A stretch of DNA of 64,000 bases from Wolbachia endosymbiont of Tyrophagus putrescentiae (GTDB lineage: Bacteria; Pseudomonadota; Alphaproteobacteria; Rickettsiales; Anaplasmataceae), in assembly GCA_030441635.1 (NCBI GenBank), contig JAUEMM010000001.1:119467-183466 (forward strand), given 5' to 3'. The position numbers and the translations under genes were made by a program. Shown piece after piece: positions 26,550-46,899 of this stretch (position 1 is the first letter of the stretch; every line of letters starts with the position of its first letter). Under the pieces are notes generated by a model. It ran no database searches. It worked only from the letters and a program-made list of their open reading frames with translations, and was not told where the DNA came from.

Positions 26550-26609
26550 ACTGGAAGTTGGGAAATTTATTGAATTTTTTTAATTAAAATTATATTTTTA
26601 ACTTTTAAT

Positions 26610-27875
26610 ATGATGAGAGTGTCAAATAAAATAGGTTTTTTAGCAATTTTTGCTTTAGTAATCAGCAGTCAAATTGGCTCTGGCATCTTTATGTTGCCAA
26701 TTAGTCTTGCTCCTTATGGCATTTATAGTTTAACAAGTTGGCTGATATCTAGTGCAGGTGCTATATCCCTTGCTCTGGTGTTTGCCTTACTCTGTGCAAA
26801 ATTTCCTGAGACAGGTGGGCCGCACGCATATGTAAAACATGCTTTTGGTCCAACAGCAGCTTTCTTCACTGGATGGACGTACTGGGTAATCTCTTGGGTA
26901 AGTACAACTGCTGTAGTGGTTGCAAGCGTTGGTTACCTTACGCAGCTTTTTCATAGTGACATGCACCTGTTTTTAGAAATACTACTACTTGCAACTATTA
27001 CGTTAATAAATCTGAGAGGAATCACTACTGCTGGATATGTTGAACTTTTATTAACAATCATCAAAATCGCAGTTTTACTCTTAATTCCAGCAATTGCTTT
27101 ATTTTATTTTGACAAGAGCAACTTTGTTGTAAGTAATGAAGTCTCGAGCCTTACACTATCGCAAATTCTTGCGCGATCAACGCTTCTGACCATGTGGTGT
27201 TTTGTTGGTCTTGAATCAGCAACAGCACCTGCAGGATCAGTGAATAATCCAGCTAAGACAATTCCAAGAGCAATAGTGTTTGGTACAGTCTGTGTCGCTA
27301 TTATATATTTCATTAATAGTCTTACAATTATGGGACTCATAAATGGCAATGATTTAGTCAATTCAAAGGCGCCATACGTAGATGCAATAAAAATTATGCT
27401 GGCCGGTAATTGGCACCTAGGAATTTCTATTGTTGCCTTTATATTTTGCATTGGCTGTCTGAATGCTTGGGTTTTAGCAAGTGGACAAGTTGCCTTAGGT
27501 CTCGCTGAAGATAAACTTATGCCAAAATTTTTTGCTAAGAAAAATAAACATGGCTCTCCTTTTTGGGGAATAATCACTAGTTCACTCGGCACTCTGATTT
27601 TACTTATGCTCACATCAAGCAACAATTTTGCTGAGCAAATCACATCAATTATTGATTTCTCTGTAGTATCATTTTTATTTGTTTACTTAATATGCAGCTT
27701 AGCTTTAATCAAGCTTGCCAGATTCTATCACCAGCTTTTAATCGGGATAATAGCTGCAGCCTTCTGCTGTTGGGTGATCTCTGAAACCTCTATGAGTATC
27801 TTATCAGTAGCAAGTTTATTTACTGTAAGTGGAATACCTATGTATTTGTTTTGGTATCGCAGGGTGTGTGTATAA
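26610..27875 (+). CDS. APC-superfamily amino acid permease, paralog 2
   Basis: 421 aa, collinear with paralog 1 and nearly identical over the first ~95 aa and a central block. Confidence 0.8.
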   Translation: MMRVSNKIGFLAIFALVISSQIGSGIFMLPISLAPYGIYSLTSWLISSAGAISLALVFALLCAKFPETGGPHAYVKHAFGPTAAFFTGWTYWVISWVSTTAVVVASVGYLTQLFHSDMHLFLEILLLATITLINLRGITTAGYVELLLTIIKIAVLLLIPAIALFYFDKSNFVVSNEVSSLTLSQILARSTLLTMWCFVGLESATAPAGSVNNPAKTIPRAIVFGTVCVAIIYFINSLTIMGLINGNDLVNSKAPYVDAIKIMLAGNWHLGISIVAFIFCIGCLNAWVLASGQVALGLAEDKLMPKFFAKKNKHGSPFWGIITSSLGTLILLMLTSSNNFAEQITSIIDFSVVSFLFVYLICSLALIKLARFYHQLLIGIIAAAFCCWVISETSMSILSVASLFTVSGIPMYLFWYRRVCV

Positions 27876-30759: not shown

Positions 30760-31239
30760 CTAAATGGAGGTCTTTCAGCTAAAATATGAAATAAAAAATA
30801 CGCTAAAAACTAATCGAACAAACACGGTATTTTGCTTCAAATTTTTACCAATAAAGGTCCCATATTTTTACATAATCTGTTAATAACATTCTCTATTTCT
30901 CCACAATATAGGGTGTTTTTTGCAAATTTAGAGATTGAGTAAAGTAAACAAATGAAAATTTTGTTACGCTAAAGATATCATTTTTCTTAAAAAAGTATTT
31001 AATTTGAGATTAAAAAATATGTTACTTCACATATAATTTTTCTTATCTTATGTTAATAAGAGTATAGAATTAAAACAAACACCGAGGAGCAATTTTTAAT
31101 ATCAAATCTTAGAAAGAGGTTAATCTATTCCTATTAATATAGCTTTTTTGCAGTGTACTTCTTGAAAAAAGGTTAAGCTGCCTTTTACTATTGTTTAATT
31201 GCTAATATTGTAATATTAAATCGTCATGTGAGGTATAGA

Positions 31240-32277
31240 ATGGATATTAAAGCGAATTACGCAAGAATCACTAAACGTGTGGCAGCATATATAGTAGACC
31301 AAACGATATTCCTAGTCTGTTGTTCATCATTTTTTTTATTAATTTTATTTATATTACCAGAAGAACCACCTGCTGACTTTTTTAATTATGTCTTTCCTGA
31401 TAATGATATTGATACAGGCCTCGTGTCAAAACGATATGAAATATTAAAAGATCCAGGTACATTACTAGAAAGTTTGCTATATATAGCATTAGAAGTATTA
31501 ATGATAACAAGACTTGGCTGGACTCCTGGAAAATTACTCTTTGGTATATATATAAAAGATGCAAGCACACTTAAAAACGCTGCTTTAATGCAAGTAATTA
31601 TGAGAAGTAGTCTCAAGGCGCTTTTGTTTATTATGCTCTATATCTCTGAGTGGTTTTTAATTTTACCAATCTTGGTTTTAATATTTGCAGCATTTAATAA
31701 ATTCAATCAGTCCTTTTACGATAAAATTGCAAACACGGTAGTGATAGAGCATCAGTCTGAAAAATGTTACTTAAATTCAAACTATGCGGGAATAGCTAGA
31801 CGTGTTATGGCGCATATTATTGACAGTCTTGTTATTATTGGAATTTCTTTAATCTCTTTGATTTTTATAGGAATAATTTTTCACATTGCTGGATCTAAAT
31901 TATTCATTAAACGTACTTACTTATCTTTTTTGCTATCAATAGTATTCGGTGTATTCATGATAAGAAAATTTGGTGGTACTCCAGGACAATTGTTAAGCGG
32001 TATTCATATAAAAGATGCAGATACATTTGAAAATATTACTCTGGTGCAAGCGATAATTAGGCATGTCTTGGTTGAAATTATTCGCTTCCCTATACTAATC
32101 ACGAGAAGGGAAATTTTTAATAAGTATACCTCTGAATGGTGGCTTGATCCATTTTCAGGCTTAATCTTTATGACTATGATGCTAATTTTTGTATATGCAA
32201 TATTTGATCAGCGCAAGCAATTTCTTCATGATAAAATCGCAAGAACAGTGGCGATAGAATATAAACCTTTAAGCTAA
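31240..32277 (+). CDS. RDD-family membrane protein with two RDD domains, copy 1
   Basis: Two internal halves start YARITKRVAAYIVDQ and YAGIARRVMAHIIDS. Each half ends in F(Y/L)HDKIA(N/R)TV, the RDD-family signature, with multiple TM helices. Start at ATG 31240 (MDIKANY), matching copy 2. Confidence 0.75.
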   Translation: MDIKANYARITKRVAAYIVDQTIFLVCCSSFFLLILFILPEEPPADFFNYVFPDNDIDTGLVSKRYEILKDPGTLLESLLYIALEVLMITRLGWTPGKLLFGIYIKDASTLKNAALMQVIMRSSLKALLFIMLYISEWFLILPILVLIFAAFNKFNQSFYDKIANTVVIEHQSEKCYLNSNYAGIARRVMAHIIDSLVIIGISLISLIFIGIIFHIAGSKLFIKRTYLSFLLSIVFGVFMIRKFGGTPGQLLSGIHIKDADTFENITLVQAIIRHVLVEIIRFPILITRREIFNKYTSEWWLDPFSGLIFMTMMLIFVYAIFDQRKQFLHDKIARTVAIEYKPLS

Positions 32278-32341
32278 TTGTTTGCTTTGATCTACCTTCT
32301 CTGTCGGATTTTTAATTCATATCAAATTCACTTAGAAATCA

Positions 32342-32369
32342 TTGACACTAAAAATATCTGTGTTATAGT
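32342..32369 (+). promoter_or_regulatory. sigma70-like promoter (TTGACA, 16-nt spacer, TATAGT) upstream of the 32458 gene
   Basis: ttgaca at 32342-32347 and tatagt at 32364-32369. The same architecture is conserved upstream of the 34070 gene. Confidence 0.4.
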
Positions 32370-32457
32370 AAGCTATATTTAGCATTTTGGTGGGATTGTT
32401 TCGATCATTTAGCTTCATAGTAAAGGTAGTTTATTAATTATACTTGAGGAGGATTAA

Positions 32458-32805
32458 ATGGGTGTGGGTCAGCAACAGTCAATCAGTAAAACAATTGATG
32501 AAGTTTGTACAGAGGTAAGTAGATTAATATATGATATTATTAGCGAAAATCAGGAGAATATTGATGTAATTGAAAATCTTCGTTCAACGCTAAAAATAAG
32601 GAAAATTGTGTCAAGTAATTTAAATAAATTTGCAAAGGTTTTACGTAGACATATTGCCGAGAAGCTTACAGATATGTTTATAGAACATCTTGTTGAAAAA
32701 TATACAACTCAAGAACAACGCAAGGCTTTTATAAAAGAAGTTTGTGAAATTGTTTTAGATCCTTCTCCTTCGATCAGGATTGCAGAAAAGCTTTCTCAGA
32801 TATGA
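32458..32805 (+). CDS. hypothetical 115-aa protein (N-terminus MGVGQQ)
   Basis: ATG is preceded by gaggaggat. Helical and charged, with no recognisable domain. It occupies the position held by the 34070 ankyrin gene in the duplicated module. Confidence 0.5.
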   Translation: MGVGQQQSISKTIDEVCTEVSRLIYDIISENQENIDVIENLRSTLKIRKIVSSNLNKFAKVLRRHIAEKLTDMFIEHLVEKYTTQEQRKAFIKEVCEIVLDPSPSIRIAEKLSQI

Positions 32806-32904
32806 AATAAAGAGCATATCATAGAGGAATATAGCAATATATCCCATTTTACTATTGTTTAATTGCTAATATGGTAACATTAGATGGTTATGTAAGGCAT
32901 AAAA

Positions 32905-33900
32905 ATGGATATTAAAGTAAACTATGCAGAAATTAGCAGGCGTATTGTAGCATATACAGCCGATCAAATAATATTTCTAGTTTTTTTCTTATTCACTTTA
33001 TTTCTACTATCAGGAAAGTCTCTTACTGACGTTCTTAATTATGTATTTCATGACGATATAACCTCCTCAATCCAATATGAGATGTTAGGAGCATTAGTAT
33101 ATGTGATATTAGAAGTATTAATGATAACAAAACTTGGCTGGACTCCAGGCAAATTGCTATGTGGTATGTACATAAAAGATGCAAATACTTTTGAAAATGT
33201 TGCTTTAACACAGATAGTAATAAGAAGTATTCTTAAGATGCTTCTGATGTTACCCATCTACATTTCTGACTGGTTCTTTATTTTACCAATTTTAGTTTTA
33301 ATGCTTGCAAAATTTGATCAACGTAAACAACTTTTTCATGATAAGATTGCGAAAACAGTAGTAATCGATTACAAACCTGAAAAACATCACTCAAATCTAA
33401 GCTACGTGGGAATATTTAAGCGTGTAGCAGCATATATTATCGATTACCTTACTATTACAGGAATCACTTTAGTCTTCCTCTATTTTGCAGAAATGACTTT
33501 TGACACTAATAAAGCTGAGCTATTAGCAACATACTTGTTTTTCCTGCTATCAATAATATTTGGAGTATTCATGATCAAAAGGTTTAGTGGTACTCCAGGA
33601 CAATTGTTATGTGGTATTCACATAAAAGATGCAAATACACTTGAAAATATTACTTTAGTTCAAGCAATAGTCAGGTACGTTTTGTTTGGGGCTTCTAACA
33701 TACTTGTATTGAATTATGCACTTACTCTAGAAGAGTTATACAATAAGCATGCTTTTGAATGGTGGCCAGAACCCTTGTTGATCTTAACATTTGTAGTTAT
33801 AACACTAATTTTCATATCTGCAATATTCGACAAACACAAGCAGTTTTTTTACGACAAAATTGCAAGAACGATAGCAATAAACTATAAATCTTCAAGCTAA
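32905..33900 (+). CDS. RDD-family membrane protein with two RDD domains, copy 2
   Basis: 331 aa, collinear with copy 1 (for example LEVLMITKLGWTPGKLL, YIKDANTFENVAL, ILPILVL, FHDKIAKTVVI). Confidence 0.75.
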   Translation: MDIKVNYAEISRRIVAYTADQIIFLVFFLFTLFLLSGKSLTDVLNYVFHDDITSSIQYEMLGALVYVILEVLMITKLGWTPGKLLCGMYIKDANTFENVALTQIVIRSILKMLLMLPIYISDWFFILPILVLMLAKFDQRKQLFHDKIAKTVVIDYKPEKHHSNLSYVGIFKRVAAYIIDYLTITGITLVFLYFAEMTFDTNKAELLATYLFFLLSIIFGVFMIKRFSGTPGQLLCGIHIKDANTLENITLVQAIVRYVLFGASNILVLNYALTLEELYNKHAFEWWPEPLLILTFVVITLIFISAIFDKHKQFFYDKIARTIAINYKSSS

Positions 33901-34069: not shown

Positions 34070-35653
34070 ATGGGTATAGGTCAAACTAATGATATAACTG
34101 AAAAAGACAGTGTTGTTAAGCTATTACAGTCTGGTATTTTAAATCAAGGAAATCTTAATGGTAAAATTGGGCATACAGGGGTAATAAGCTTAAGCGAAGA
34201 TAATACAGTTAAGCTTTATCGTTCAAAACGAAATATAGGTATAGTTAATGTAATACTCTTTATAACCAGGTTAGTGTCAAATCCGCGTGGTTGGCAATGG
34301 GGTATAAGAGTGGGTACACGGTACTTAGGTACACGACGTGGACAGGAGAAGGCTATAGATACAGGTAGAGATGCTCTTGGTGATGTAGAGGTTTTGGAAA
34401 AGCTTAAGGATCTTGTTAATCGGTTTCATAATAACAGCAAAGCGCCACAAGAAACTACTACTCAAAGTAGCCAGACTATAAAACAGCTTAACTTAGAGCT
34501 AATTAATGCTGTAAAACAATCTAATCTTGATAAGGTTAAAGAGTATGTTAATAAGGGAGCTAATGTAGAGACTAAAGATAGTAATGGCAGTACAGCTTTG
34601 CATATAGCTGCTAAAAGTGGCAACTTAGATATAACAAGGTTTTTATTGGATAAAGGTGCTGATTTTAATGCTCAAGATAGCTTAGGTTTTATGCCTTTAC
34701 ATTTAGCTGTTGAACATGGTCATTTAGATATAGTCAAATCTCTTGTAGAGAAAGGTGCTGATGTTGATGCTTATCAAGGTGGATATAGCTATAGTACTGC
34801 TCTTCATTTAGCTGCTCAGAAAGGTCATTTAGATGTAATAAAATACCTTATAGAGAAGGGTGCTAACCACAAAGCTACTGATAGAGACGGCAAAACTCCT
34901 ATGCTAAGAGCCATTCAGAATGGGCACTTAGATGTATCTGGATACCTTATGGAAACGGAAGAACAACAGGTGACAACAAATGCACAACAGGTTACAAAGG
35001 GACAGCAAATTACAGAAGTAACAGAAGTAAATGATAACAAAGTTCCACAAGAAACTGCTACTCAAATTAGCACAGTTGGAACAAGTGAGAAGCATGTGAC
35101 AGAGAGTTACAGCAAAGCGCCACAGGAATTTACCACTCAAATTAGTACAGTTGGGACAAGTGAGAGGCATATAACAGAAAGTTATAGCAAAGTGCCACAA
35201 GAAATTACTACTCAAATTAGCACAACAGAACTAAATGATAGTAAAACACCACAAGAAGCTACTACTCAAATGAGTACGGTTGGGGCAAGTCAACAACAAA
35301 CTACAGAACTAAATGACAACAAAACACCACAAGGTCAGATTAGCACAAAAGAACAACCAGTCACAGAAGAGCCACCTAAAAGTCTTGTACAAGAGATTTG
35401 GAAATTTATTTCTGATCTTTTACCTAAATCCAGAGATGGTCTTTTAATAGAAAGTTATAGCAAAATGCCACAAGAAATTACTACTCAAATGAGTACAGCT
35501 AGAACAAGTGCAAAACAAGTTACAGGTGAGCAGCGAGTTACAGAAGTAAACGGTATCAATACTCCACAAGAAGCTACTACTCAAATGAGTACAGTTAGAA
35601 CAAGCGTAAAACTCATTACAGAGAAGCAACGAACTACAGAAAGACAACAATGA
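34070..35653 (+). CDS. ankyrin-repeat protein with C-terminal T/Q-rich tandem repeats
   Basis: 527 aa. ANK units (DSNGSTALHIAAKSGNLDITRFLLDKGADFNAQD, and others) are followed by PQE-x-TTQ(I/M)ST(V)GTS... repeats. Confidence 0.85.
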   Translation: MGIGQTNDITEKDSVVKLLQSGILNQGNLNGKIGHTGVISLSEDNTVKLYRSKRNIGIVNVILFITRLVSNPRGWQWGIRVGTRYLGTRRGQEKAIDTGRDALGDVEVLEKLKDLVNRFHNNSKAPQETTTQSSQTIKQLNLELINAVKQSNLDKVKEYVNKGANVETKDSNGSTALHIAAKSGNLDITRFLLDKGADFNAQDSLGFMPLHLAVEHGHLDIVKSLVEKGADVDAYQGGYSYSTALHLAAQKGHLDVIKYLIEKGANHKATDRDGKTPMLRAIQNGHLDVSGYLMETEEQQVTTNAQQVTKGQQITEVTEVNDNKVPQETATQISTVGTSEKHVTESYSKAPQEFTTQISTVGTSERHITESYSKVPQEITTQISTTELNDSKTPQEATTQMSTVGASQQQTTELNDNKTPQGQISTKEQPVTEEPPKSLVQEIWKFISDLLPKSRDGLLIESYSKMPQEITTQMSTARTSAKQVTGEQRVTEVNGINTPQEATTQMSTVRTSVKLITEKQRTTERQQ

Positions 35654-35880
35654 CAACAAAAGCACAACAAGTTACAGAAGTATCACAGGTCATAGAAAAG
35701 CAGCAGGTTGTAACAGAAGGAACACAGATTACAGAAAAGCAGCAGACTACAGAAGGACAGCAGGTAACAACAAAAATGCAACAGGTTACTGAGAGACAGC
35801 AGGTTACAACAGAAGCGCCGCAGGTTACAGAAAGGCAACAGACTACAGAACTAAATGAGTGCAAAACATCACAAGAAATT
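34955..35880 (+). repeat. low-complexity coding repeat tract spanning the junction of two ankyrin genes
   Basis: 75-nt units at 35041-35115 and 35116-35190. Degenerate copies occur near 35191, 35245, 35466 and 35564. These are followed by QQVT(E/T) short repeats at 35650-35850. Confidence 0.8.
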
Positions 35881-37209
35881 ACTAATCAAAATAGCCAAAA
35901 GTTGAGCTTAGAGCTAATTATAGCTGTAAAAGAATCCAACCTTGATAAGGTTAAAGAGTATATTAATAAGGGTGCTGATGTAAATACTAGAGATTATTAT
36001 CACTGGCATGAAAACACGATTCTTCATTGGGCTGCTAAAAAAGGTTTTGTGGGTATAGCAAAGTTTTTATTAGATAAATGTGCTAATGTGAATTTTAGGA
36101 ACACATTCGATGATACTCCTTTACATCTTGCTGCTGAAAATGGTCATTTAGATATAGTTAAATCTCTTGTAGAAAAAGGAGCTAATGTTAATGCTAAACG
36201 CAGACATGGCTTGACTCCTTTACACTTTGCTGCTAAAAATGATCACTTAGATGTAGTTAAATACTTAGTTGATGAGAAAGGTGCTGATTTTAAGGTTAAG
36301 GACAATGATGGCTGGACTCCTTTACACTTTGCTGTTTACAGTGGTCACTTAGATATAGTTAAATACTTAATTGATACAAAAGGTGCTTATTTTAATGTTC
36401 AGGATGCAGGTGATTTCCATGGTTGGACTCCTTTACACAGGGTTGCTGATAATGGTCACTTAGATGTAGTTAAATACTTAGTTGATGAGAAAGGTGCTGA
36501 TTTTAATGTTAAGGACAATGATGGCATGACACCTTTACACGTTGCTGCTTCTGGTGGTCACTTAGATATAGTAAAATATCTTATAGGGGAAGGCGTTGAT
36601 GTAAATGCTGAGAATAAAGTCCGGAATACTCCATTACATATGACTGCTTGGAGGGGTCACTTAGATACAGTTAAATACCTTGTAGAAAAAGGAGCTGATA
36701 TTAATGCTAAAAATAAATATAATGAAACACCTTTAGGTTTAGCAGGAACACATGATGTAGTTAAATATCTACAAGGACTAGGTGCTAGTCGTAGCCGCCG
36801 TTCTGTAACAGGAAACCAACAAGGAAAATTATCATTATTAATAAATGATAGAGTTATGAATTGGATTAAAGGTTCTACAGAATCTCCAGCTTTACTTACT
36901 TCTAAGGAGCGTAGCACTAATCATGACAATACTATTACGTTTGCACCAGAGATAAATGCTACTGTAATAAACAACGCACTGCTGTTAGGTATGTTTGCTG
37001 CTAGTGTATTCAATAAAACACAAAGTAAGCAACAACCAACTCAAGAGAACCTTTTGTCGCCAGCTCAACAATCGATGTTGAAGAATGGAGTTGATGAGTA
37101 TGCAATTAAAAAAGCTATAGAAGAGGGCGAGAAGAAGTATGGGGTTTCACCTGCTACTTATATTGATAATGTATCGCTTCATAGCAATGAAACTGGGTTA
37201 CAGAAGTAG
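35650..37209 (+). CDS. ankyrin-repeat protein (about 10 ANK units) with N-terminal QQVTE repeats
   Basis: 519 aa. Its ATG overlaps the stop of the previous gene (ATGA). It has repeated GWTPLH..A...GHLD(I/V)VKYL(V/I)..KGAD units. Confidence 0.85.
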   Translation: MTTKAQQVTEVSQVIEKQQVVTEGTQITEKQQTTEGQQVTTKMQQVTERQQVTTEAPQVTERQQTTELNECKTSQEITNQNSQKLSLELIIAVKESNLDKVKEYINKGADVNTRDYYHWHENTILHWAAKKGFVGIAKFLLDKCANVNFRNTFDDTPLHLAAENGHLDIVKSLVEKGANVNAKRRHGLTPLHFAAKNDHLDVVKYLVDEKGADFKVKDNDGWTPLHFAVYSGHLDIVKYLIDTKGAYFNVQDAGDFHGWTPLHRVADNGHLDVVKYLVDEKGADFNVKDNDGMTPLHVAASGGHLDIVKYLIGEGVDVNAENKVRNTPLHMTAWRGHLDTVKYLVEKGADINAKNKYNETPLGLAGTHDVVKYLQGLGASRSRRSVTGNQQGKLSLLINDRVMNWIKGSTESPALLTSKERSTNHDNTITFAPEINATVINNALLLGMFAASVFNKTQSKQQPTQENLLSPAQQSMLKNGVDEYAIKKAIEEGEKKYGVSPATYIDNVSLHSNETGLQK

Positions 37210-37348
37210 ATAGTGGTTGAAGTGGAGCATGGCAATTGTTTATATAATATTGGGTATACTCCCCTTCGTTATATTTGATAATTTATTTGTACTAGACACA
37301 ACTTAATCTGACAGACAAGAGTTAACTGACAGAAGAATTGAGGTAGTC

Positions 37349-37389
37349 AAAGAGGAGTATGGTAGTCGTTTCTAGGTATACTCCTCTTT
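37349..37389. terminator. 12-bp perfect hairpin between convergent ankyrin genes
   Basis: aaagaggagtat (37349-37360) pairs with atactcctcttt (37378-37389) across a 17-nt loop, followed by attatttt. Confidence 0.4.
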
Positions 37390-37415
37390 ATTATTTTAGA
37401 CAATTTACTAAATTC

Positions 37416-38590
37416 TTAACTCTTCTGAACAGAATTCAAATATTTGATCACATTTGAGTCAGTTGCAACATTCGCAGCAGTTTTACCGTCATTATTTTTA
37501 GCATTAATATCAGCACCTCTTCGTATAAGGTATTTCATTACATCTATTTTATCTTCTTGGTTCTGAAATATATTGTCTTGAGCAGCTAAATGCAAAGGTA
37601 TATTGCCATCATTATCTCTAACATTAATATCTGCCCCTTTCAGAATTAAGTATTCTATTATTTCACAATTATGTTGACCAGCCGCTATGTGTAGTGCTGT
37701 AGTTCCATCTTTTGTTGTACTATTTATATCAGCACCCTTATCGACTAGATATTTTACTACATCTAAGCTCTTACTACCTACAGCACTATGTAAAGAAGTA
37801 CCACCGCCATAGTATCTGCAGCATTAGCATTCACATCAGCGCCTTTCTCAATCAGGTATTTCACTACATCCAAACTACCATTACCGGCAGCACTGTGTAA
37901 CTCAGTACAGCCATACCTGTTCCTTAGGTTAACATCAGCACCTTTCTCAACATATTTCATTTAACATTCACAAAATCATTCTGTTCTACAGCGTTAGCTA
38001 GTTCTAAATTGAGTTGTTCCATGGGTATTGCTGTACTAGTGGTCTCTTGTAACTTTGTATACTGCTTCGTTGTAACCTGTTGTACTTCATTAGCTCTTTT
38101 CTCTATAAGGTTACTCTCTTATACCCGAGCAAGGATGCCATCAGCTATGCGTAAAAGTGGCTGTCCATACTGATTTCTGATATTAACATCTGCACCTTTA
38201 TTTTCAATAAGTTTTAACAGTCTCAAGCTCACCGCGTTTTACAGCATTAATTAGCGCGAAATTTACAGGTATTTCTAAATTTGTATGTTCTATAGGTACT
38301 GTTATTTTTTGTGATTCTGTGACATGCTGCTCTGTTGTAATTTCTGCACATTGTTTTTTGGCATCAGACTCATGCTCCTCAAACTTTCCGTTTATTTTAT
38401 CTACAGCTCTCTCCTTTAAATGATGCTGTTTTATTCTATGTAACTGTGAAATAAACATAACTGCATTAAAAAATTTCATCATATCTTTGAGTACACTTAA
38501 ACTCCGCTTTGAGCAATGAAGTTTATCCTCGCTTACTTTGTTATCGTTAAAGTTTAAAGACTGTAGTTGTTTATTTTTTTTGTTGCTCAC
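37416..38590 (-). pseudogene. degraded ankyrin-repeat gene (multiple frame disruptions)
   Basis: The N-terminal ORF 38590-38204 ends ...AVKRGELETVKTY*. The next ANK unit (LIENKGADVNIRNQYGQPLLRIA) is in another frame. ORF 37960-37778 holds ANK units. The last ~125 codons (…KYLVDKGADINSTTKDGTTALHIAA… to QKS*, stop at 37416) are in yet another frame and lack a start. Confidence 0.65.
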
Positions 38591-38768: not shown

Positions 38769-39759
38769 TTATACAGTAATTACTCTTGAGTAACTTGTTT
38801 GATCAGTAAAATTGGAGTTTACTATAAGATTAACTAGGTGTTTTCTAACAAGATCTGCTTCACAGTAAATTGGGCTATATCCTTTAACATGTGCTTTATT
38901 TTTTAATTGATTCTCAACTATTTTTTTATCTTGCAAGAACGCGATTTGAAAAAATGGCCATGCAATAATGTATTTCAAAAATCCAGGTAAAATAGTCCTT
39001 TTAGGAAAGTAAAAGAGAACATGAATATTATGTAAATTTGTAGTAGTTGGTGTCAAATAAGCTCTAATCTTAAGACTCAAACCATTTTTACTGTAGTAGT
39101 TAATCTCTGCGATGCTAGGCATTTGAAACAAGGAGTCACTTTGAAATCTTTCTTTTTCAAACGATTTAGATATAACTCCAAATTGCTTATTTTCTCCGGT
39201 GTAATGAATGGTTACACAACGATCAAAACATTTAACTTGAGCATAAATTTTTTGTGCTTTTTTTGGACTACGTATCAGGTATTTATGAATAAAGGGAGTA
39301 TGAGTAGCATCAAGAAAATTCTCTAATATATCAATTAGATCACCATTTACTTTCCTTGTCCAATAGTAATGATGGCAGGAATCTAAGTCTGGTATACCAT
39401 ATAATGGATATGGATTACTGTTTAGACTTACAAAAACGTATCCCTTATATTCCTCAACAAATACCTTTTTGAGACAAAATCTAGGAGCATTTTCTAAAGC
39501 AGGTATATTTTTACATACTCCTTCAAAATTGAATTCCCAACCATGATAGCAACACTTAATGTAATCACTGGTTAGCCTTCCATTTGAAAGGGGCACTCCG
39601 CGGTGTGGACAATAGTCGATAAATCCCCTCAATATTCCTATTATTATCTCTAAAGATAATAATAGGAATATTTAAAATAAAAAATTTTTGCAATTTGTAT
39701 TTTATGTCTTTCGATCGACTTACTAAGTAGCAATAACTTTTTAGATGTTCTATATTCAT
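38769..39759 (-). pseudogene. Rieske [2Fe-2S] non-heme iron oxygenase, frameshifted
   Basis: Rieske motifs CPHRG (about 39597-39611) and CCYHGW (39541-39558). The N-terminal 60 codons (39759 downward, ...IIIFRDNNRNIE) are in a different frame and join near the C4 run at 39625-39628. Confidence 0.7.
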
Positions 39760-40913
39760 AACTTAAAATACTTCATAATGGGAACTCCAATGTAAATTAG
39801 TATATTGCCTAATAACTTCCATGTTAATTTTTGCAATCTATTATTTAGATGATTTGTATAGACGGCACTATATTCGATAAATGGTACACCACCACGTAAA
39901 ATTTTGAATAGTGATGCACCAGAGCTAAGGTTCAATACCATACCTTTACGTTGCGCTCTATTAATACAGTAAGCCATCAATATTCTATACAACCCTAGTT
40001 TTTGTGATAAATCTGTATCATACCCAACAATTGGTGCTGTTGTAGTATTATTTCTATCATAGCAACCAATTATAGCATCTAAAACACCCTCTTTATTACG
40101 TAAACCGAAATATTCAATGAATGATGTCTTATGTGAGTATTCTATGTATTGAGCATTAAAAATAGGATTATATGTTGAATATTTATCGATATATAATTTT
40201 TTGTATAAATGTTCTATTTGTTTGTAGTCACTGTGCATTATATCTGCATTGTAACACAAAGTATAATCTCTTATATTATTTAAAAGCTTTAGGTCAATCT
40301 GATAATTTTTTTGTTTTGTATAGTCTTTAAGACTTTGATCAAATATATAGACTTGTCTACTTGGAACTAGCTTACAGCCAATATTTTTCAAAACTTGTAT
40401 TAAGTCCTTATTAGTGTGAAAATTTAGGGACCTAAATATAATAGTATGCTCAGGAAATTCTTTTATAAGGCCTTGTAAATATTGTCTTAGTTCACCTTCC
40501 TTCCATGTTGTATTAAAGTATAAATTTGTAGAAAGTAAAAAATTATTATTGGAAACAACACGATCTATATGCACTTTCTTTAATAAATTATCCAAACTGC
40601 TAATGAGCATTAGTAGTATTTTTTGAATCAATAGATTATTTATTTTCTTCAATTCCTGTTTAGCATAAGATATAAAAGCAGTATACATAGAACATACATA
40701 AGATGTGTTATAAGCAATCTCATTAACTGTTACAGATAGTATACTCCCATCAACAACAGCAGCCCTTATTTCAGTTTGAACATTATCAATTAATAAGAAT
40801 GGTATTTTTAGTGCTTGCAACATCATATAATGAGCAAGTTCGGTTTTTTCTTTAAGAACAGCTTCAGAGCTAATATCATCAAGATTCAGTAATTTCATGC
40901 CCATCCCACTCAA
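39756..40913 (-). CDS. hypothetical protein, possibly GNAT/FemAB-like acyltransferase fold
   Basis: 385 aa. The C-terminal segment GLYRILMAYCINRAQRKGMVLNLSSGASLFKILRGGVPFIEY resembles CelD/FemAB-type GNAT proteins (weak, by eye). There is an ATGA overlap with the Rieske gene. Confidence 0.4.
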   Translation of the reverse strand: MSGMGMKLLNLDDISSEAVLKEKTELAHYMMLQALKIPFLLIDNVQTEIRAAVVDGSILSVTVNEIAYNTSYVCSMYTAFISYAKQELKKINNLLIQKILLMLISSLDNLLKKVHIDRVVSNNNFLLSTNLYFNTTWKEGELRQYLQGLIKEFPEHTIIFRSLNFHTNKDLIQVLKNIGCKLVPSRQVYIFDQSLKDYTKQKNYQIDLKLLNNIRDYTLCYNADIMHSDYKQIEHLYKKLYIDKYSTYNPIFNAQYIEYSHKTSFIEYFGLRNKEGVLDAIIGCYDRNNTTTAPIVGYDTDLSQKLGLYRILMAYCINRAQRKGMVLNLSSGASLFKILRGGVPFIEYSAVYTNHLNNRLQKLTWKLLGNILIYIGVPIMKYFKL

Positions 40914-42024
40914 TATCTTGTGTTGCTGCCTTTTTAAGGTTAAATCTTGTAGAAAAGCTCCTGATTAGAATTTCGAAAAAACTAATAAATTGTAGGTAAT
41001 GTAACTTTTTTTCACTATAAATGTCTAGTGCGTTTTTATAATCTTTAATGAATTGTTTTACACCAAAACCTTTAATGTGATTAGCAGAATACAACCACAT
41101 ACCAAATTTCACTTGATAAGGTTTATTATGTGTTACATACTTTGACTCTTTTGGTTTTGTAATTAACTCTAATATGTTTAATTCAGGTATTAAGTACAGC
41201 CCACTCGTTCCTCTTGGATTACATTCAATTGGGTAAATATGTCCATAATCATCAGCGATAAAATCAAAAGCTATTTGCCCTGTAAAGCTGAATTTTCTTG
41301 CGGTACTTTTTACAAAATCAATAATTTCTTGGTTATATTCAGGTTGAAAATATATTCCAGCTCCTAAACCAGCTTTATATTTTGGATGGTAGCAAGAGTG
41401 TACAATAATTTTACCATTTATAGATAGGCTATAGGAGCATAACTCCCTACCGGAAATTTTTTGTTGAGCAACAACAGGATATCTTATTGCAGTTCTAATT
41501 TTGGAAATGTCTAATATTGTTTCTGACCCAAAACGACTAAACACCGGCTTTAGGATATAGTCGTTAGTATCATGTTTTGTTTTCCAATGTAAAAACTCGT
41601 CCTGAGAATTAATAAGATATGTTTTTGGCTTATGTATACCAGTATCATCAACAAGATTTTTGATAAATAAAAATTTGTTATGCAGCAATGATAGTTTTTC
41701 AAATTCATCTGTAAATAAATGAGTTGTAGTAGGTAGAAAATGTTTTAGCTTAGATAAGTAAAATATTTCTTCACATGTTGGAATAATTAAGTTTATTCCT
41801 TCTTTTACAACTATTGATAATATGTCTTCTATGAATAGTCTAGGAGACTGCATTGGTGATCTGATATAGTAGTATCGCTCTATAGTATTAGTAAACCTAC
41901 CTATTGGTAAGCGCATGCTATCAGCCATAATAATCTTTACGCTCGACCTACTGAATTTTAATCTATAAGCCCATTCAATTGCAATCGGAGCCCGAGCACC
42001 GGTAATTAAAATATTCATCTGCAA
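40879..42024 (-). CDS. ATP-grasp enzyme
   Basis: 381 aa. N-terminal NILITGARAPIAIEWAYRL, central KPVFSRFG, and IECNPRGTSGLYL (the E-x-N-P-R ATP-grasp catalytic loop). Confidence 0.75.
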   Translation of the reverse strand: MQMNILITGARAPIAIEWAYRLKFSRSSVKIIMADSMRLPIGRFTNTIERYYYIRSPMQSPRLFIEDILSIVVKEGINLIIPTCEEIFYLSKLKHFLPTTTHLFTDEFEKLSLLHNKFLFIKNLVDDTGIHKPKTYLINSQDEFLHWKTKHDTNDYILKPVFSRFGSETILDISKIRTAIRYPVVAQQKISGRELCSYSLSINGKIIVHSCYHPKYKAGLGAGIYFQPEYNQEIIDFVKSTARKFSFTGQIAFDFIADDYGHIYPIECNPRGTSGLYLIPELNILELITKPKESKYVTHNKPYQVKFGMWLYSANHIKGFGVKQFIKDYKNALDIYSEKKLHYLQFISFFEILIRSFSTRFNLKKAATQDIEWDGHEITES

Positions 42025-43337
42025 TCCTCAATATTAAAGTTTCTCCTTATCCTTCTGTACTTCTGCCTAAGATCAATGGAATTCAATTTGAGAAAGGTGA
42101 TATTCGGATAATCAAGCTGTAATAGATCACATAAATTCCGTATGTCCTGATTTATATATCCTTTTGCATCTTCTGACAGTGGAGCCATCTTAATCCACAA
42201 TTGATCATGACTGTTTTGCTCTATTCTATAGTCACTTACAGCACTTTGCTTGCAAAATATGTTACGAACTGAGTCAGCAAATATAGGTATTAACTCGCCA
42301 CTATTACGTTTCTTTAGATATAAAACATCATCACAACGTCCTTCTATTCTGTCTAAAATTGTGAATGGAGTATCATTTTTCTCATCTGACAGAACTAGAA
42401 CATCATCTAAGCGGTAACGTACTATAGGTTGGGAAGTTCGTGTAAAGTCTGTTATAATTGGAATAAAGCGATTTTCACCAACTAATTCTTTCTCAATAAA
42501 TACGTATTCCTCATTCATAATAATACCATCGTGGTATGGGGAACTTATTCCTAAGAACCCTTCTGTACATTGATAAATTTGAAAGATTTTTTGATTAAAG
42601 AAAGCACTCAATTTTGTTTCAACATCAGGATCTAGTACTTCTGATACAGAAAAAATCTAACAGGATTAACTTGATGGCTTTTTATGCTGCCGATAAGGAG
42701 GGTTAAAACACAAGCTGGAGCAACTAAAATAGTTGGTTGATATTTACATAATTCTGAAGCTATATAATCTATACCACTTGTAACGTCTATAAATTTAAAA
42801 TTTATGATTTTTGAACTTAAGTTCTGATATAAAGTACTGTCATTTCTAAAACAGAAAGCAATTCTATGCTTTTGTAATTGTAGTCCTTTTTAATGCCTTG
42901 CTTAACATGATTCCAGACCATAAATCACACTCACTTTGAGAAACAAGAAAGATCCCTGTTTTGCCAGAAGTACCTGAAGATAAGCCAACAGTTATATTAT
43001 TATAGTTAAGATTATATAGGCGTTTTTCATAGCAAGTGTGTGCAAAATTCAGTAATTCTTGACTTTTAAGTCCTAGCGTATTTATTGATGATATATTTTC
43101 CATCATAGATATCTTGTCCATTACAGGAAAATCCTCTAATAGTCTACCGTTTTATGCACTATAAAACGGTGAATGACTACACAACCACTTTAAAAACTTA
43201 CTCAACTTTAGCTTTTGATAAGTTTCCAATTTGGCTCTACTATTAAGTGAGTAGGTAAGATAGCGATCTTGTAAAAAAGCCTTTATTATGGTTAACTTAC
43301 TCATAAATCCACCATTTTCAAGTATGTTTCTAAGCAA
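42015..43337 (-). pseudogene. F390-synthetase/PaaK-like adenylate-forming enzyme, disrupted at three or more sites
   Basis: Fragments: N-terminal ...YQKLKLSKFLKWLCSHSPFYSA, then an in-frame TAA at 43152-43154. Next NGRLLEDFPVMDK...GLSSGTSGKTGIFLVS (AMP-binding Ser/Thr/Gly loop), ending in TAG at 42864-42866. A middle piece follows in another frame. A further shift at the A6 run 42650-42655 leads into QIYQCTEGFLG...PIVRYRLDDVL... Confidence 0.7.
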
Positions 43338-44149
43338 TGAGACGGTATTATTTTAATATTAGGATAAAGTTTATGCAGAGTACGCAATTTACTTAATGTT
43401 GCACTGTACTCTGAATGATTGTGGTGTAGTATTTTTGTTATCCAATGCGGTAGAGTGTTACTCACATATGCTTTTTTTATCCAACAGGAATCCCCTACTA
43501 AAAATTTGTGTGTATCATTACAATATAAACCAAAATGTCCAATTGCATGACTAGGTAATGGTACAGCTAATAGTGTCTCATCTCCTAATATGTCATATGC
43601 AATATTAAATAAATATGGACCTGGAGTTTGCTTTTTGCATTCAATAAAATTGAGTTTTCTATATTTGAATTTTGCAACTAAGTATGGTAAAATTCCCTTA
43701 ATTATCCCCTTAAAACCTGTAGCTTTTTTTGCAAATTCATATGCCTCACGTGAACAAATAATCTCAGCATTTGGAAAGTCATCTATAGCTGAAATATGAT
43801 CTGCGTGAAAATGAGAAACAAAAATATATTTTATACTTAAAGGATCTATTCCATCTACGAGTAGGGATTCTCTCAAAGTGAGAGGAATATGCACAGGAGT
43901 CAATAGTTTGTATAATGCATATGGAAATTTCTTTGTTGCATTAAAAAATTCTTGACTATAACCAACATCAAAAAGAATGTGCCCAAACTTGTTATGATGA
44001 AGAAGAGCACAAATCATTGAAAATTCTTTTAACCGAAGTGAACCGTTTTTTATTACTGTATACTCAGGGTGTCTACAGTACCCAGCTCGATAGAGTTTAA
44101 ATCTAACCATGCGAAAACCATTTTGCAAATCTATTAATACCTTCTTCAA
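43301..44149 (-). CDS. MBL-fold metallo-hydrolase
   Basis: HxHxDH motif (SHFHADHISA), plus downstream His and Asp residues (PSHAIGHFG, VGDSCW, PSHC). Confidence 0.8.
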   Translation of the reverse strand: MKKVLIDLQNGFRMVRFKLYRAGYCRHPEYTVIKNGSLRLKEFSMICALLHHNKFGHILFDVGYSQEFFNATKKFPYALYKLLTPVHIPLTLRESLLVDGIDPLSIKYIFVSHFHADHISAIDDFPNAEIICSREAYEFAKKATGFKGIIKGILPYLVAKFKYRKLNFIECKKQTPGPYLFNIAYDILGDETLLAVPLPSHAIGHFGLYCNDTHKFLVGDSCWIKKAYVSNTLPHWITKILHHNHSEYSATLSKLRTLHKLYPNIKIIPSHCLETYLKMVDL

Positions 44150-45095
44150 TAGATACTGAAGGTTTAAATTTCAAAAGAGTTTGTGCATTATGTATATTCA
44201 AAGTTTGAGAATAAGACAATAATCCCAGTGTATAAGAAGTAATAGGTGGTTCAAATGCATAATTTGTTAATTTGCTAGTAAGTTCCATTATTGCTGTTAC
44301 TGATTTTAAAAGTGAATACTTTACTTTAATTAAGCGTACTTTGACCTTCAAAGCATCAAATAGAATGTCCAAAATATTTTGTATTTTTAGTGGCTGATTG
44401 TTTGTAATATTGAATATCTGTCCTGACACTGTTTCAATATTAGAAAGTGACAACATAATTGCATCCACCACATTTTCTACATATGTAATATCCACAATAG
44501 GGTCTCCATTTCTTATTAGTGGAAAATATCCTCTAGAAGCTATGCGTGACACACGAGGAATAAATTCCTTATCATATGGACCAAAAATACCTCTTGGTCT
44601 TAAAATTACAGACTTTATCATATTACTGGCGCCTATTACTAGGTCTTCTGCAAGCTTTTTTGTTTCAGTATAAAAGCTTGCAAATTGATTTGATAGAGGA
44701 TCATTTTCCGAAATATTCAACCGATCTCTAAAATCAAAGTAAACACTAGGAGTGGATATATGAATCAAAGGACAGTCCTTTTTATAAGCGAGTTCAATAA
44801 CATTTTTAGTACCAACTACATTTGTTATGTAAAAATCTAAATATTTTCCCCAAGGCTTAGAAAGCGCAGCACAATGAATAATAGCTAAACATGTCCCTAG
44901 TGATTTCTCAATATGAATTTCATTTCGTATATCAGTAGATATAAAAGTTGCCCCTTGAAACTGCAGTTGCTTTCCTATGTTCTGATTTCTTCCAATTGCA
45001 ACAACATGATTACCAACACTCAGAAGATATTCTACAAGATTCCTTCCAAGTCCTCCAGTTGCTCCAGTAACTAAGATATATGGTTTAGTATTCAA
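44103..45095 (-). CDS. NAD(P)-dependent epimerase/dehydratase (extended SDR, 3-beta-HSD-like)
   Basis: VTGATGGLGRNLV Rossmann motif and YTETK (YxxxK) catalytic motif, 330 aa. Confidence 0.85.
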   Translation of the reverse strand: MNTKPYILVTGATGGLGRNLVEYLLSVGNHVVAIGRNQNIGKQLQFQGATFISTDIRNEIHIEKSLGTCLAIIHCAALSKPWGKYLDFYITNVVGTKNVIELAYKKDCPLIHISTPSVYFDFRDRLNISENDPLSNQFASFYTETKKLAEDLVIGASNMIKSVILRPRGIFGPYDKEFIPRVSRIASRGYFPLIRNGDPIVDITYVENVVDAIMLSLSNIETVSGQIFNITNNQPLKIQNILDILFDALKVKVRLIKVKYSLLKSVTAIMELTSKLTNYAFEPPITSYTLGLLSYSQTLNIHNAQTLLKFKPSVSIEEGINRFAKWFSHG

Positions 45096-46077
45096 GAATC
45101 AGCCCTCCCAATATCAATCCAGCAGCCGCTCCTAAAAATAAGATTTTATTCCCTTTTTGAAGTTGTTTATTATTAGTCAACTCATATAATGCATTTGGTA
45201 CTGAAGCTGCTACCTGATTACCGTAATTTTCAATAATGCATATTACTTTATCTTGCTTAATACCAAGATGCTTTTGTATGTGTTTTATACCGTGGTAGCT
45301 TGCTTGATGAGGAATTACAAAATTAATGTCCTGAAGTGATACGTTAGCCTTTTTGAGCAATAATTCTAAGAAATTATTAAAGTATTTAGCTGCAGTCTTA
45401 AATATTTTTGGGCCATCCATTTCGAAGTAAAAGGAGGTAATACCAGGTGATTATCCAGTTCTACTAGGGTGGGTTAAGGTTCCACAACCACGACATTGAC
45501 TATGATTTCCACCATCAGGAAATGTCTGAAATAAAGATGCAATAACTGATGAAGATGAACTCTGTGATGCACTTAGAATAACTGCCACCGCACCATCACC
45601 AAATAAGTTAAAAGTTGAATGATTATTTTTAGTTATTCCTAGAGACGGTAATTCACTACAAAATATTAAAATGTTTTCATAATTTTTTACTTTAAATAGA
45701 CAATCCGCGATTTCTAATGCTTTTAAAAAACCTAAGCAAGTACAGTCTACATCAAAGCAGTCTTGACCACTAGTTTGGTAATAAGATAGTAGCAATGATG
45801 CAGTACACGGTAAAATCTGTGGAACCAAGCTTCCTCCATTGATAATACAGTCAATATTTTCTATGCTTAAGTTTGCTTTAAGTAGTGCATCATCAATCGC
45901 ATCTTTTGCCATACTAAGTGTTGTTTCATTTATCGGCTCAGCCCAATATCTAGATTTTATATGTGAATTTCTCTCTGTATAGCCAGCAGGAAGATTGCAT
46001 AATTCATCGATCTTATCAGAAGTAACTTTGTTTTTTGGAATGCAGCGTCCTATTGAATTTATAGAAAAATGTTTCAT
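45085..46077 (-). pseudogene. KAS III (FabH)-like condensing enzyme with a single in-frame TAA
   Basis: The Cys-His-Asn triad context is present (DCTCLGFL; VIPHQAS; YGNQVAASV). The N-terminal 208 codons and C-terminal 111 codons are in the same frame, separated by TAA at 45451-45453 plus 10 sense codons (SPGITSFYFE). Confidence 0.8.
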
Positions 46078-46282
46078 ATTTTCATTTTAGTCTAAGTCAA
46101 ATATACTTTAATGCTAATACTATATTTTACATTATTAAAATAATTAAGCAAGGAAGGTGAATAATCAAAGAGAAAGGATTGTGAAGATGGGAGATTCCTG
46201 TGAGCAGCACTAGTAAAAAAATTCTTTATTTAGAAGCCAAATTTTCTAAAATTAAAAGAATTTTTCTTGCCCACTTTTAATT

Positions 46283-46383
46283 ATGTATGGCCTTTTTAAG
46301 CTTTTCATACTATTAAAAGTATGAGGAATATGGCCAATTTAACTCACATTTCATAATATTTGTGAGACCGAGTTTATTTAGTA
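46283..46383. repeat. copy A of a ~100-bp imperfect direct repeat in an ORF-free spacer
   Basis: Blocks shared with copy B: atRtatggYctttt, aatatggccaat, ttgtgaga, agttt(t)atYtagta. Confidence 0.6.
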
Positions 46384-46718
46384 AAGAGCGGGGAGCCACT
46401 TTTTCTTGTGAATTTGCCTATATCAAATTTAGCATAACCTTAAATCCATCTCCGGTGGCCAACTTTACCCACAATATATTTTAGTTGCGTAAGTAATTTA
46501 CTTTTCGCAAGCTATTAATAAATCTCTCCAAATCACGCTTTTATGGAAAGTATTCTCAATGTGATGCAAAGGAATTTTTCAACTGAGGTTTTGTGCTATA
46601 ATTTGTTCTTTAAAAAAACTTTAGCAAAGCAATGTCAATAAAAAACATTATGTTGACTGCTTTACTTTTTAGCTTCGTTTTTATTAAAATTTTCTAATTT
46701 TTTTATTCTCTCTTAAAC

Positions 46719-46818
46719 ATATATGGTCTTTTAACATTTTATACCACTTCCAATACGCGCTAATATGGCCAATGTCAGCTATTTTACATAACACTTGTGA
46801 GAAGAAGTTTTATCAGTA
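46719..46818. repeat. copy B of a ~100-bp imperfect direct repeat
   Basis: See copy A. The two copies are 436 bp apart, start to start. Confidence 0.6.
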
Positions 46819-46899
46819 TAGTAACCTCCACTAAAATAGCTAAGTCCATATTAAATCTTTACCATCACATTCTGAACCTAAGGTGTTGGTACTGCAAAA

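Follow-up and report, generated by a model that had tools for sequence, protein, structure and literature searches.

A cassette of seven enzyme genes, three of which are broken, was characterized in the DNA of the Wolbachia endosymbiont of Tyrophagus putrescentiae (assembly GCA_030441635.1, contig JAUEMM010000001.1, positions 119,467–183,466). The whole stretch of 64,000 nucleotides that was analyzed is referred to as the window. The seven gene-equivalents were found contiguous on the minus strand within window positions 38769–46077, in the order ketosynthase (KAS), short-chain dehydrogenase/reductase (SDR), metallo-beta-lactamase-fold hydrolase (MBL), F390 synthetase-like adenylate-forming enzyme (F390-like, or TIGR02304, enzyme), ATP-grasp ligase, GNAT-like protein and Rieske oxygenase. 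The window cassette adds a new, decaying copy to a type of cassette that is widespread but uncharacterised. Probably it was acquired horizontally, is carried by a deep-branching Wolbachia and has entered an early stage of pseudogenisation, and its intact form combined an acyl-forming with an amino acid-attaching set of enzymes. For Wolbachia biology this would represent the rare case of an entire multi-enzyme pathway gained from beyond the genus and observed while it is being lost.

Layout of the cassette and its lesions

The cassette comprises the following features.

45085–46077, minus strand: KAS III-type ketosynthase pseudogene with one in-frame TAA at 45451–45453
44103–45095, minus strand: extended SDR of the 3-beta-hydroxysteroid dehydrogenase/epimerase family, OleD-like, intact (motifs GATGGLG and YxxxK)
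43301–44149, minus strand: MBL-fold hydrolase, intact (motif HFHADH, PF00753), with translation probably starting at the ATG at 44110
42015–43304, minus strand: TIGR02304 "F390 synthetase-related" adenylate-forming enzyme pseudogene with one TAA and two indels
40879–42018, minus strand: ATP-grasp carboxylate-amine ligase (NF005315/PRK06849-like), intact (ECNPRG loop)
39756–40898, minus strand: tandem-GNAT protein (PF13480/BioF2-like, FemX/MprF-like fold), intact, assigned from an AlphaFold model and homologues
38769–39759, minus strand: Rieske/VanA_C non-haem iron oxygenase pseudogene with a +1 frameshift near 39639
39631–39672, no strand: perfect inverted repeat of 19 nt with a 4-nt loop, read from the sequence and spanning the Rieske frameshift

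The preliminary description of this region had listed seven co-directional genes with junctions at 45095/45085, 44149/44103, 43337/43301, 42024/42015, 40913/40879 and 39759/39756, and both the genes and the junctions were confirmed. When start codons were set by tblastn alignment of intact orthologues, the overlaps at the junctions were 4–20 nt, with ATGA overlaps at the MBL/F390-like, F390-like/ATP-grasp and GNAT/Rieske junctions. Such overlapping or abutting gene ends are the layout of one translationally coupled operon. The gene packing thus agrees with the single operon proposed earlier, whereas the disruption of three of its seven open reading frames (ORFs) had gone unreported. The GC content of the cassette is 31.4%, compared to 33.8% for the whole window.

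Lesions were called by aligning the window cassette to related cassettes on three metagenome contigs: L006 (from ERZ28596770), L008 (from SRR20047430) and L098 (from SRR23525762). Five lesions were detected, distributed over the KAS, TIGR02304 and Rieske genes. In KAS, the nonsense codon TAA at 45451–45453 derives from CAA (L006 has CAA and L008 has AAC at this codon) and falls between the N-terminal half with the catalytic Cys and the C-terminal half with the His and Asn. In the TIGR02304 gene, TAT was changed to TAA at 43152–43154; in addition, one base was gained near 42891 (+1, A4 to A5) and one was lost near 42657 (−1), these two indels together putting about 78 codons out of frame. The fifth lesion, a +1 insertion near 39639 in the Rieske gene, lies inside the perfect 19-nt palindrome listed above. 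This palindrome is imperfect in the intact orthologues and was made perfect by the insertion and adjacent substitutions; these changes therefore look like a single template-switch event, a "correction" of a quasi-palindrome.

Were the stops and frameshifts errors of sequencing or assembly, this Wolbachia would have a complete, working operon. In favour of this view, three of the five lesions are indels of one base at or next to short A runs, four genes have no defect at all, and the ratio of nonsynonymous to synonymous substitution rates (dN/dS) on the window branch is still low (0.11–0.36). Besides, one of the apparent lesions in L006 lies beside an N-run, which shows that data of this type are not free of such artefacts; the window lesions are known from assembly sequence alone, and an assembly error at individual lesions is possible. 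The other two lesions, however, are substitutions creating TAA, and the rest of the window is without comparable breakage. About 38 kb outside the cassette consists of uninterrupted frames of at least 300 codons, in which about 26 breaks would be predicted at the lesion density of the cassette, which makes general sequencing error unlikely. The completion of a 19-nt palindrome by an insertion and linked substitutions is typical of a real template-switch mutation, and the different lesions of L006 and L098 are consistent with clade-wide loss. An intact operon disguised by errors is thus regarded as an unlikely explanation.

The decay is recent, since dN/dS is low in every gene and the intact ATP-grasp and GNAT proteins keep the family-invariant residues (33 of 33 in an alignment of 28 ATP-grasp sequences and 32 of 32 in an alignment of 41 GNAT sequences). 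Pairwise dN/dS was 0.09–0.18 for all seven genes, the broken ones included when read in the ancestral frame. As judged from these substitution patterns, purifying selection acted on all seven genes until recently. The cassette can yield no product in this genome now, because its condensing enzyme, adenylating enzyme and oxygenase have all been inactivated. The host-directed or defensive metabolite suggested in the preliminary description is therefore not currently produced, and none is to be expected from this strain.

Related cassettes, origin and distribution

The closest relatives of the window cassette were found on L006 and L007 (ENA/Logan), L098 and L008, with proteins 69–90% identical where the frames are intact and 79–88% identity on DNA level. 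The gene order of L006, L008 and L098 was identical to that of the window. The three related copies lie in differing genomic contexts, and two of them have different lesions of their own. L006 contains frameshifts at the MBL and ATP-grasp starts, one of them that beside the N-run, and a premature stop in ATP-grasp (L006 7821–7908 and 9934–10915), and in L098 a deletion of 143 bp fuses MBL to the F390-like gene (at about L098 2973). L008 alone was fully intact. The four related copies at differing states of decay bear on how endosymbionts sample and discard accessory metabolism. A metagenome scan with a single GNAT query returned nothing; with an alignment as query, 22 loci were obtained, none closer than 61%.

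The window was assigned to a deep-branching Wolbachia on the basis of NuoL, which showed 74–80% identity to named Wolbachia of many supergroups, 64% to Ca. Mesenet and 58–59% to Ehrlichia, and because no other protein shares a 90%-identity cluster with RibD, Dgt, a PcrA/UvrD-type helicase or the SDR, each of which forms a cluster of its own. The cassette itself is foreign to this background. The closest ATP-grasp among GTDB species representatives showed 37% identity, and no Wolbachia-named protein was found among the best 120 matches of either the ATP-grasp or the GNAT search. At the DNA level, the window and L006 are homologous from 4 nt before the KAS ATG to the Rieske stop codon, with unrelated genes on either side. 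Beyond the metagenome copies above, the next relatives were a contig of a metagenome-assembled genome (MAG) from NCBI with a ubiquitin-hydrolase (UCH)-domain neighbour (62%), a Parachlamydiaceae MAG (54%), and Ca. Jidaibacter and Legionella (about 45%). A neighbour-joining tree placed the group of the window, an L006-like copy and L008 as sister to the UCH-neighbour MAG contig, followed by a clade that includes the Parachlamydiaceae MAG. The 37% best GTDB match, the tree placement and a homology that ends exactly at the cassette ends within different flanks support a foreign origin, in line with the earlier view that the genes have no role in core Rickettsiales metabolism.

Two further observations concern transfer of the cassette among Wolbachia. 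Contig L097, from the same metagenome as L006, carries a Wolbachia-like nuoL with 78% identity to nuoL of the window (21947–23791) at about 1.7 synonymous substitutions per site (dS), compared to a dS of 0.39–0.52 for the cassette between the window and L006. Provided that L006 and the nuoL of L097 come from one organism, a link that is unproven, the cassette was passed between Wolbachia lineages that had already diverged. In addition, positions 18–87 of L098, at the contig edge about 150 bp upstream of its cassette, showed 89% identity to the 3′ end of an insertion sequence (IS) of the window, which suggests that L098 is also from a Wolbachia.

The window IS in question is an IS5-family element (6841–7679, minus strand) with a split transposase, consisting of an HTH_Tnp_4 ORF of 149 aa and a DDE_Tnp_4/DDE_Tnp_1 ORF of 114 aa. 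Adjoining it, a short ORF at 6582–6779 (minus strand) resembles a leucine-rich-repeat (RNI-like) fragment and is probably the remnant of a disrupted gene.

Neither phage nor IS genes directly adjoin the cassette in the window. A search of IMG/VR viral contigs gave no relatives, and none of the seven proteins matched a PADLOC defence model. The cassette is not phage-borne and not a defence system.

The set had been described as an orphan, which did not hold: the same seven genes occur in the same order in many genera, with variants across phyla and on plasmids. Searches with ATP-grasp and GNAT returned about 1600 and 1500 homologues, respectively, and a scan of GTDB species representatives showed the ATP-grasp family to be present in at least 595 species. 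When 80 GTDB loci were sampled for gene content and order, all seven families were present in 21, and 16 had the exact order of the window, including Legionella norrlandica, Pseudomonas cichorii, P. capsici, Herbaspirillum, Aliikangiella, Shewanella, Hahella and Paenibacillus. A variant in Firmicutes and Bdellovibrionota showed the gene order KAS, ATP-grasp, SDR, MBL, F390-like, followed or not by GNAT, and lacked Rieske. In the Planctomycetes variant the F390-like gene was missing, and SDR and MBL shared one open frame, suggesting that they are fused. ATP-grasp, GNAT and Rieske alone were present in several genomes (e.g., L. longbeachae, Ralstonia and the freshwater contig L009, which has a VirB4 gene). 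Plasmid copies were found in Paenibacillus, Rhizobium, Shinella, Bacillus mycoides, Deinococcus and others, with generic RefSeq/PGAP names only. Behind the decaying window copy stands a cassette of seven genes that is widespread, being present in Legionella, plant-pathogenic Pseudomonas, the B. cereus group and Planctomycetes as well as on plasmids, and that the databases hold as family models only (TIGR02304, PRK07204 and PRK06849). Any intact copy of it would lend itself to expression in a heterologous host.

Enzymes and proposed chemistry of the intact cassette

Profile searches bore out the motif-based assignments of KAS III, SDR, MBL, TIGR02304, ATP-grasp and Rieske. KAS showed PF08545 and PF08541, with NF005541 as the best NCBIfam model, and aligned in a single frame over 330 residues to the intact proteins of L006 (90% identity) and L008 (83%). 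The NF005541/PRK07204 cut-off of 402 bits was passed by KAS of the L. norrlandica cassette (514 bits), and L008 KAS scored below it (323.5). The closest solved relatives of an intact KAS orthologue were MxnB (8e-48) and CorB (1.6e-45), followed by E. coli FabH (2.5e-27). The SDR matched PF01073 and PF01370, and its top NCBIfam matches were the OleD 2-alkyl-3-oxoalkanoate reductase families NF042423 (1e-55) and NF042422 (1e-52), the next match being at 1e-21. Its scores of 188 and 177 bits did not reach the OleD cut-off of 580 bits, and its best match in the Protein Data Bank (PDB) was NSDHL (7.5e-25). The nearest named relatives of MBL were AttM-type and other N-acyl-homoserine lactonases (AHL lactonases; 2e-18 in NCBIfam and 1.7e-10 in the PDB), all under family cut-offs. 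Three window fragments of the F390-like gene matched positions 2–47, 60–143 and 233–428 of the TIGR02304 profile (27.9, 77.9 and 142 bits separately), and the curated cut-off of 251.9 bits was exceeded by the intact L008 orthologue (351) and by that of L. norrlandica (424).

ATP-grasp matched NF005315 over its full length with 318.5 bits, below the cut-off of 406, with a similar score for the L. norrlandica protein (328). Its AlphaFold model (mean predicted local distance difference test, pLDDT, 93) gave PylC and the L-amino-acid ligases BL00235 and RizA as top Foldseek matches. The GNAT-like protein, which had been entered with a question mark, itself had no Pfam match; PF13480 was found in 10 of 41 homologues, and the AlphaFold model (pLDDT 95) showed a tandem GNAT fold, both of which favour the original guess. 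The top PDB Foldseek matches of this model were the MprF C-domain, Sbb17/Sba18 and FemX, with a probability of 1.00 and template modelling (TM) scores of 0.4–0.53. For Rieske, PF00355 and PF19112 (VanA_C) were detected, as in the intact orthologue; the motifs CPHRG...CCYHGW and DATHTPFIH are readable, with the frame broken upstream of them, and the nearest solved relatives were SxtDIOX/SxtT, KshA and NdmA. A role in sterol demethylation, considered on account of SdmA/SdmB-like matches of Rieske and SDR, was rejected, as the scores were 49 and 52 bits compared to cut-offs of 600 and the taxonomic spread is unlike that of sterol producers.

Genes for a carrier protein or for modular or type II/III synthases were found neither among the seven products nor in the flanks, so the earlier statement that the cluster contains no acyl carrier protein, polyketide synthase (PKS) or non-ribosomal peptide synthetase (NRPS) gene is correct, as is the remark that the set fits no named pathway.

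The intact cassette may be seen as an acyl module (KAS, SDR, MBL and the adenylating enzyme) and an amino-acid module (ATP-grasp, tandem GNAT and Rieske), groups that also occur separately. In the proposed scheme, KAS would catalyse a Claisen condensation of acyl thioesters, possibly head-to-head as in MxnB, CorB and OleA, and the OleD-like SDR would reduce the 3-oxo group. MBL would release the acid by a thioesterase or lactonase-type step, and the TIGR02304 enzyme would re-activate the carboxylate as an adenylate in an ATP-dependent manner. One or more amino acids would be attached by the PylC/L-amino-acid-ligase-like ATP-grasp enzyme and the FemX/MprF-like tandem GNAT, the latter possibly in an aminoacyl-tRNA-dependent way, and the Rieske monooxygenase would then hydroxylate the product. 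An intact cassette would thereby yield a beta-hydroxy or branched acyl lipid decorated with amino acids, or a molecule resembling a lipopeptide.

Such a product is favoured because lipid enzymes recur beside the cassette and because of the fold matches. In unrelated lineages, the cassette was adjoined by genes for a fatty-acid desaturase (7 loci), a PlsC-acyltransferase/AMP-ligase fusion (8), an FA_hydroxylase (4) and PAP2_3 (3). Within the earlier proposal of secondary-metabolite or modified-lipid logic, it is the modified-lipid option that gains from these recurrent neighbours in other phyla. The loci with lipid neighbours include L013, L016, L034, L041, L043, L045, L048, L069, L070, L079 and L082.

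Several points speak against this chemistry. The scheme is built on superfamily-level similarities: the OleD models were matched at one third of their cut-off, the TIGR02304 enzyme showed almost no similarity to solved structures (PaaK at 0.009), and the GNAT fold matches reach TM scores of 0.4–0.53 only. The lipid neighbours occur in a minority of loci. Since many genomes contain ATP-grasp, GNAT and Rieske only, or lack Rieske or the adenylating enzyme, the two modules may not make one product. In the literature, no paper was found describing the cassette or its product, annotations likewise name no product, and F390 synthetase was mentioned only in tables or in other context.

The main alternative is that an intact cassette makes a diffusible secondary metabolite or signal, such as a pyrone, a beta-lactone or an acylated dipeptide, rather than a membrane lipid. 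This is a possible, although less probable, outcome. It is in agreement with a KAS closest to the pyrone-forming MxnB and CorB, an SDR closest to OleD of olefin and beta-lactone pathways, an MBL closest to AHL lactonases, a Rieske closest to the saxitoxin-tailoring SxtT and SxtDIOX, and an ATP-grasp like PylC and L-amino-acid ligases; ABC ATPase genes were also found near the cassette in 9 loci. However, no dedicated exporter, regulator or resistance gene was consistently linked to the cassette, the recurrent neighbours are membrane-lipid enzymes, and the structural matches of GNAT include the lipid-aminoacylating MprF domain.

A catabolic function, in which an aromatic or lactone substrate is activated with CoA, oxygenated, hydrolysed at the lactone and cleaved thiolytically, could draw on the PaaK-related ligase, the VanA-type Rieske, the lactonase-like MBL, the dehydrogenase and the thiolase-superfamily enzyme. 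The last of these, however, is a Claisen condenser of the KAS III/MxnB type and not a degradative thiolase, and the ATP-grasp ligase and the FemX/MprF-like tandem GNAT are anabolic. The cassette is retained by obligate intracellular bacteria of minimal catabolism, and several subsets are without Rieske or the ligase, which together make degradation quite improbable. That the seven are housekeeping genes of Wolbachia fatty-acid synthesis or the cell envelope (FabH, a sugar epimerase and the like) standing merely side by side is suggested by generic family names (beta-ketoacyl-ACP synthase III, NAD-dependent epimerase) and is very hard to uphold, as the intact KAS orthologue scored 182 bits (the window halves 87 and 87) against a cut-off of 292 for the FabH model TIGR00747, the seven genes are found together as one unit in unrelated phyla, no close homologue was found among GTDB representatives, and the genes are being lost here.

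Beyond the acyl lipid or lipopeptide-like product favoured above, a more specific picture can be offered as speculation. The cassette might encode an undescribed route to aminoacylated beta-hydroxy/alpha-branched acyl lipids, with an Ole/MxnB-like module, a PylC-like ligase and a possibly tRNA-dependent GNAT, and might belong to a gene pool of intracellular bacteria (Legionella, Parachlamydiaceae and Rickettsiales), having moved between diverged Wolbachia lineages and having been repeatedly lost.

Flanking sequences and comparison with known systems

The cassette is flanked upstream by ribD and dgt and downstream by ankyrin-repeat genes and fragments. Between ribD and KAS lies one further feature.

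46078–46899, minus strand: non-coding spacer of 822 bp from ribD to the first cassette gene (KAS), read from the sequence

The promoter of the cassette is presumably located in this spacer; consensus scans for promoters and terminators gave scores no better than shuffles. The spacer also contains a direct repeat of 60 nt with 72% identity (46327–46386 and 46762–46821), of which the window holds no further copy. An Rfam scan of the window showed tRNAs only, and a scan of 6350–7300 gave no match of any kind. Directly downstream of the cassette, an array of 99–120-nt repeats and short ORFs at 37250–38590 (minus strand) reads as ankyrin repeats (e.g., 37778–37960 and 38204–38590) and appears to be a fragmented ankyrin-repeat gene. 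Two adjoining, overlapping ankyrin-repeat genes of 527 and 519 aa follow at 34070–37209 (plus strand); the 527-aa gene showed weak matches to Legionella Dot/Icm Ank effector models, and the 519-aa gene has an N-terminal run of QQVTE-like repeats. Besides, two tandem paralogue pairs are present at 25251–27875 and 31228–33900, encoding amino-acid permeases (432 and 421 aa) and RDD-family proteins (349 and 331 aa).

Compared to known systems, the best fold-level matches of GNAT and ATP-grasp were the MprF C-domain, FemX and Sbb17/Sba18, and PylC and L-amino-acid ligases (TM 0.4–0.6), families to which there was no significant sequence similarity except for an MdnB-like match at 2.4e-6. The pyrone-forming ketosynthases MxnB and CorB are the closest solved relatives of KAS, but act with carrier proteins of modular PKS/NRPS systems, none of which are found here. 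The Pseudomonas quinolone signal (PQS) pathway also combines an adenylating enzyme with a FabH-like condenser and a hydrolase of the MBL fold. PqsA is a CoA ligase and PqsE an MBL-fold thioesterase, and PqsD is a detectable relative of KAS (1.2e-15). However, the sequences are distant, anthranilate-pathway genes are lacking, and the amino-acid-ligating enzymes have no PQS counterpart.

The OleABCD pathway, and those of lipstatin and nocardiolactone, showed likeness in a thiolase-superfamily condenser, an OleD-like 3-oxo-acid reductase and ATP-dependent carboxylate activation. The window cluster differs in that KAS had no OleA match, the activating enzyme is PaaK/F390-like and not an ANL-type OleC, the alpha/beta-hydrolase OleB is lacking, and ATP-grasp, GNAT and Rieske are additional. 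Finally, from the named free-living members of the TIGR02304-centred cassette, which is also present in the B. cereus group and on Paenibacillus and Rhizobium plasmids, the window cassette differs in showing only about 35–45% identity, in having three inactivated genes and in residing in an obligate intracellular host; with them it shares the same seven families (PRK07204 KAS III, OleD-like SDR, MBL, TIGR02304, PRK06849, PF13480 and Rieske), the overlapping junctions and homology over full length.

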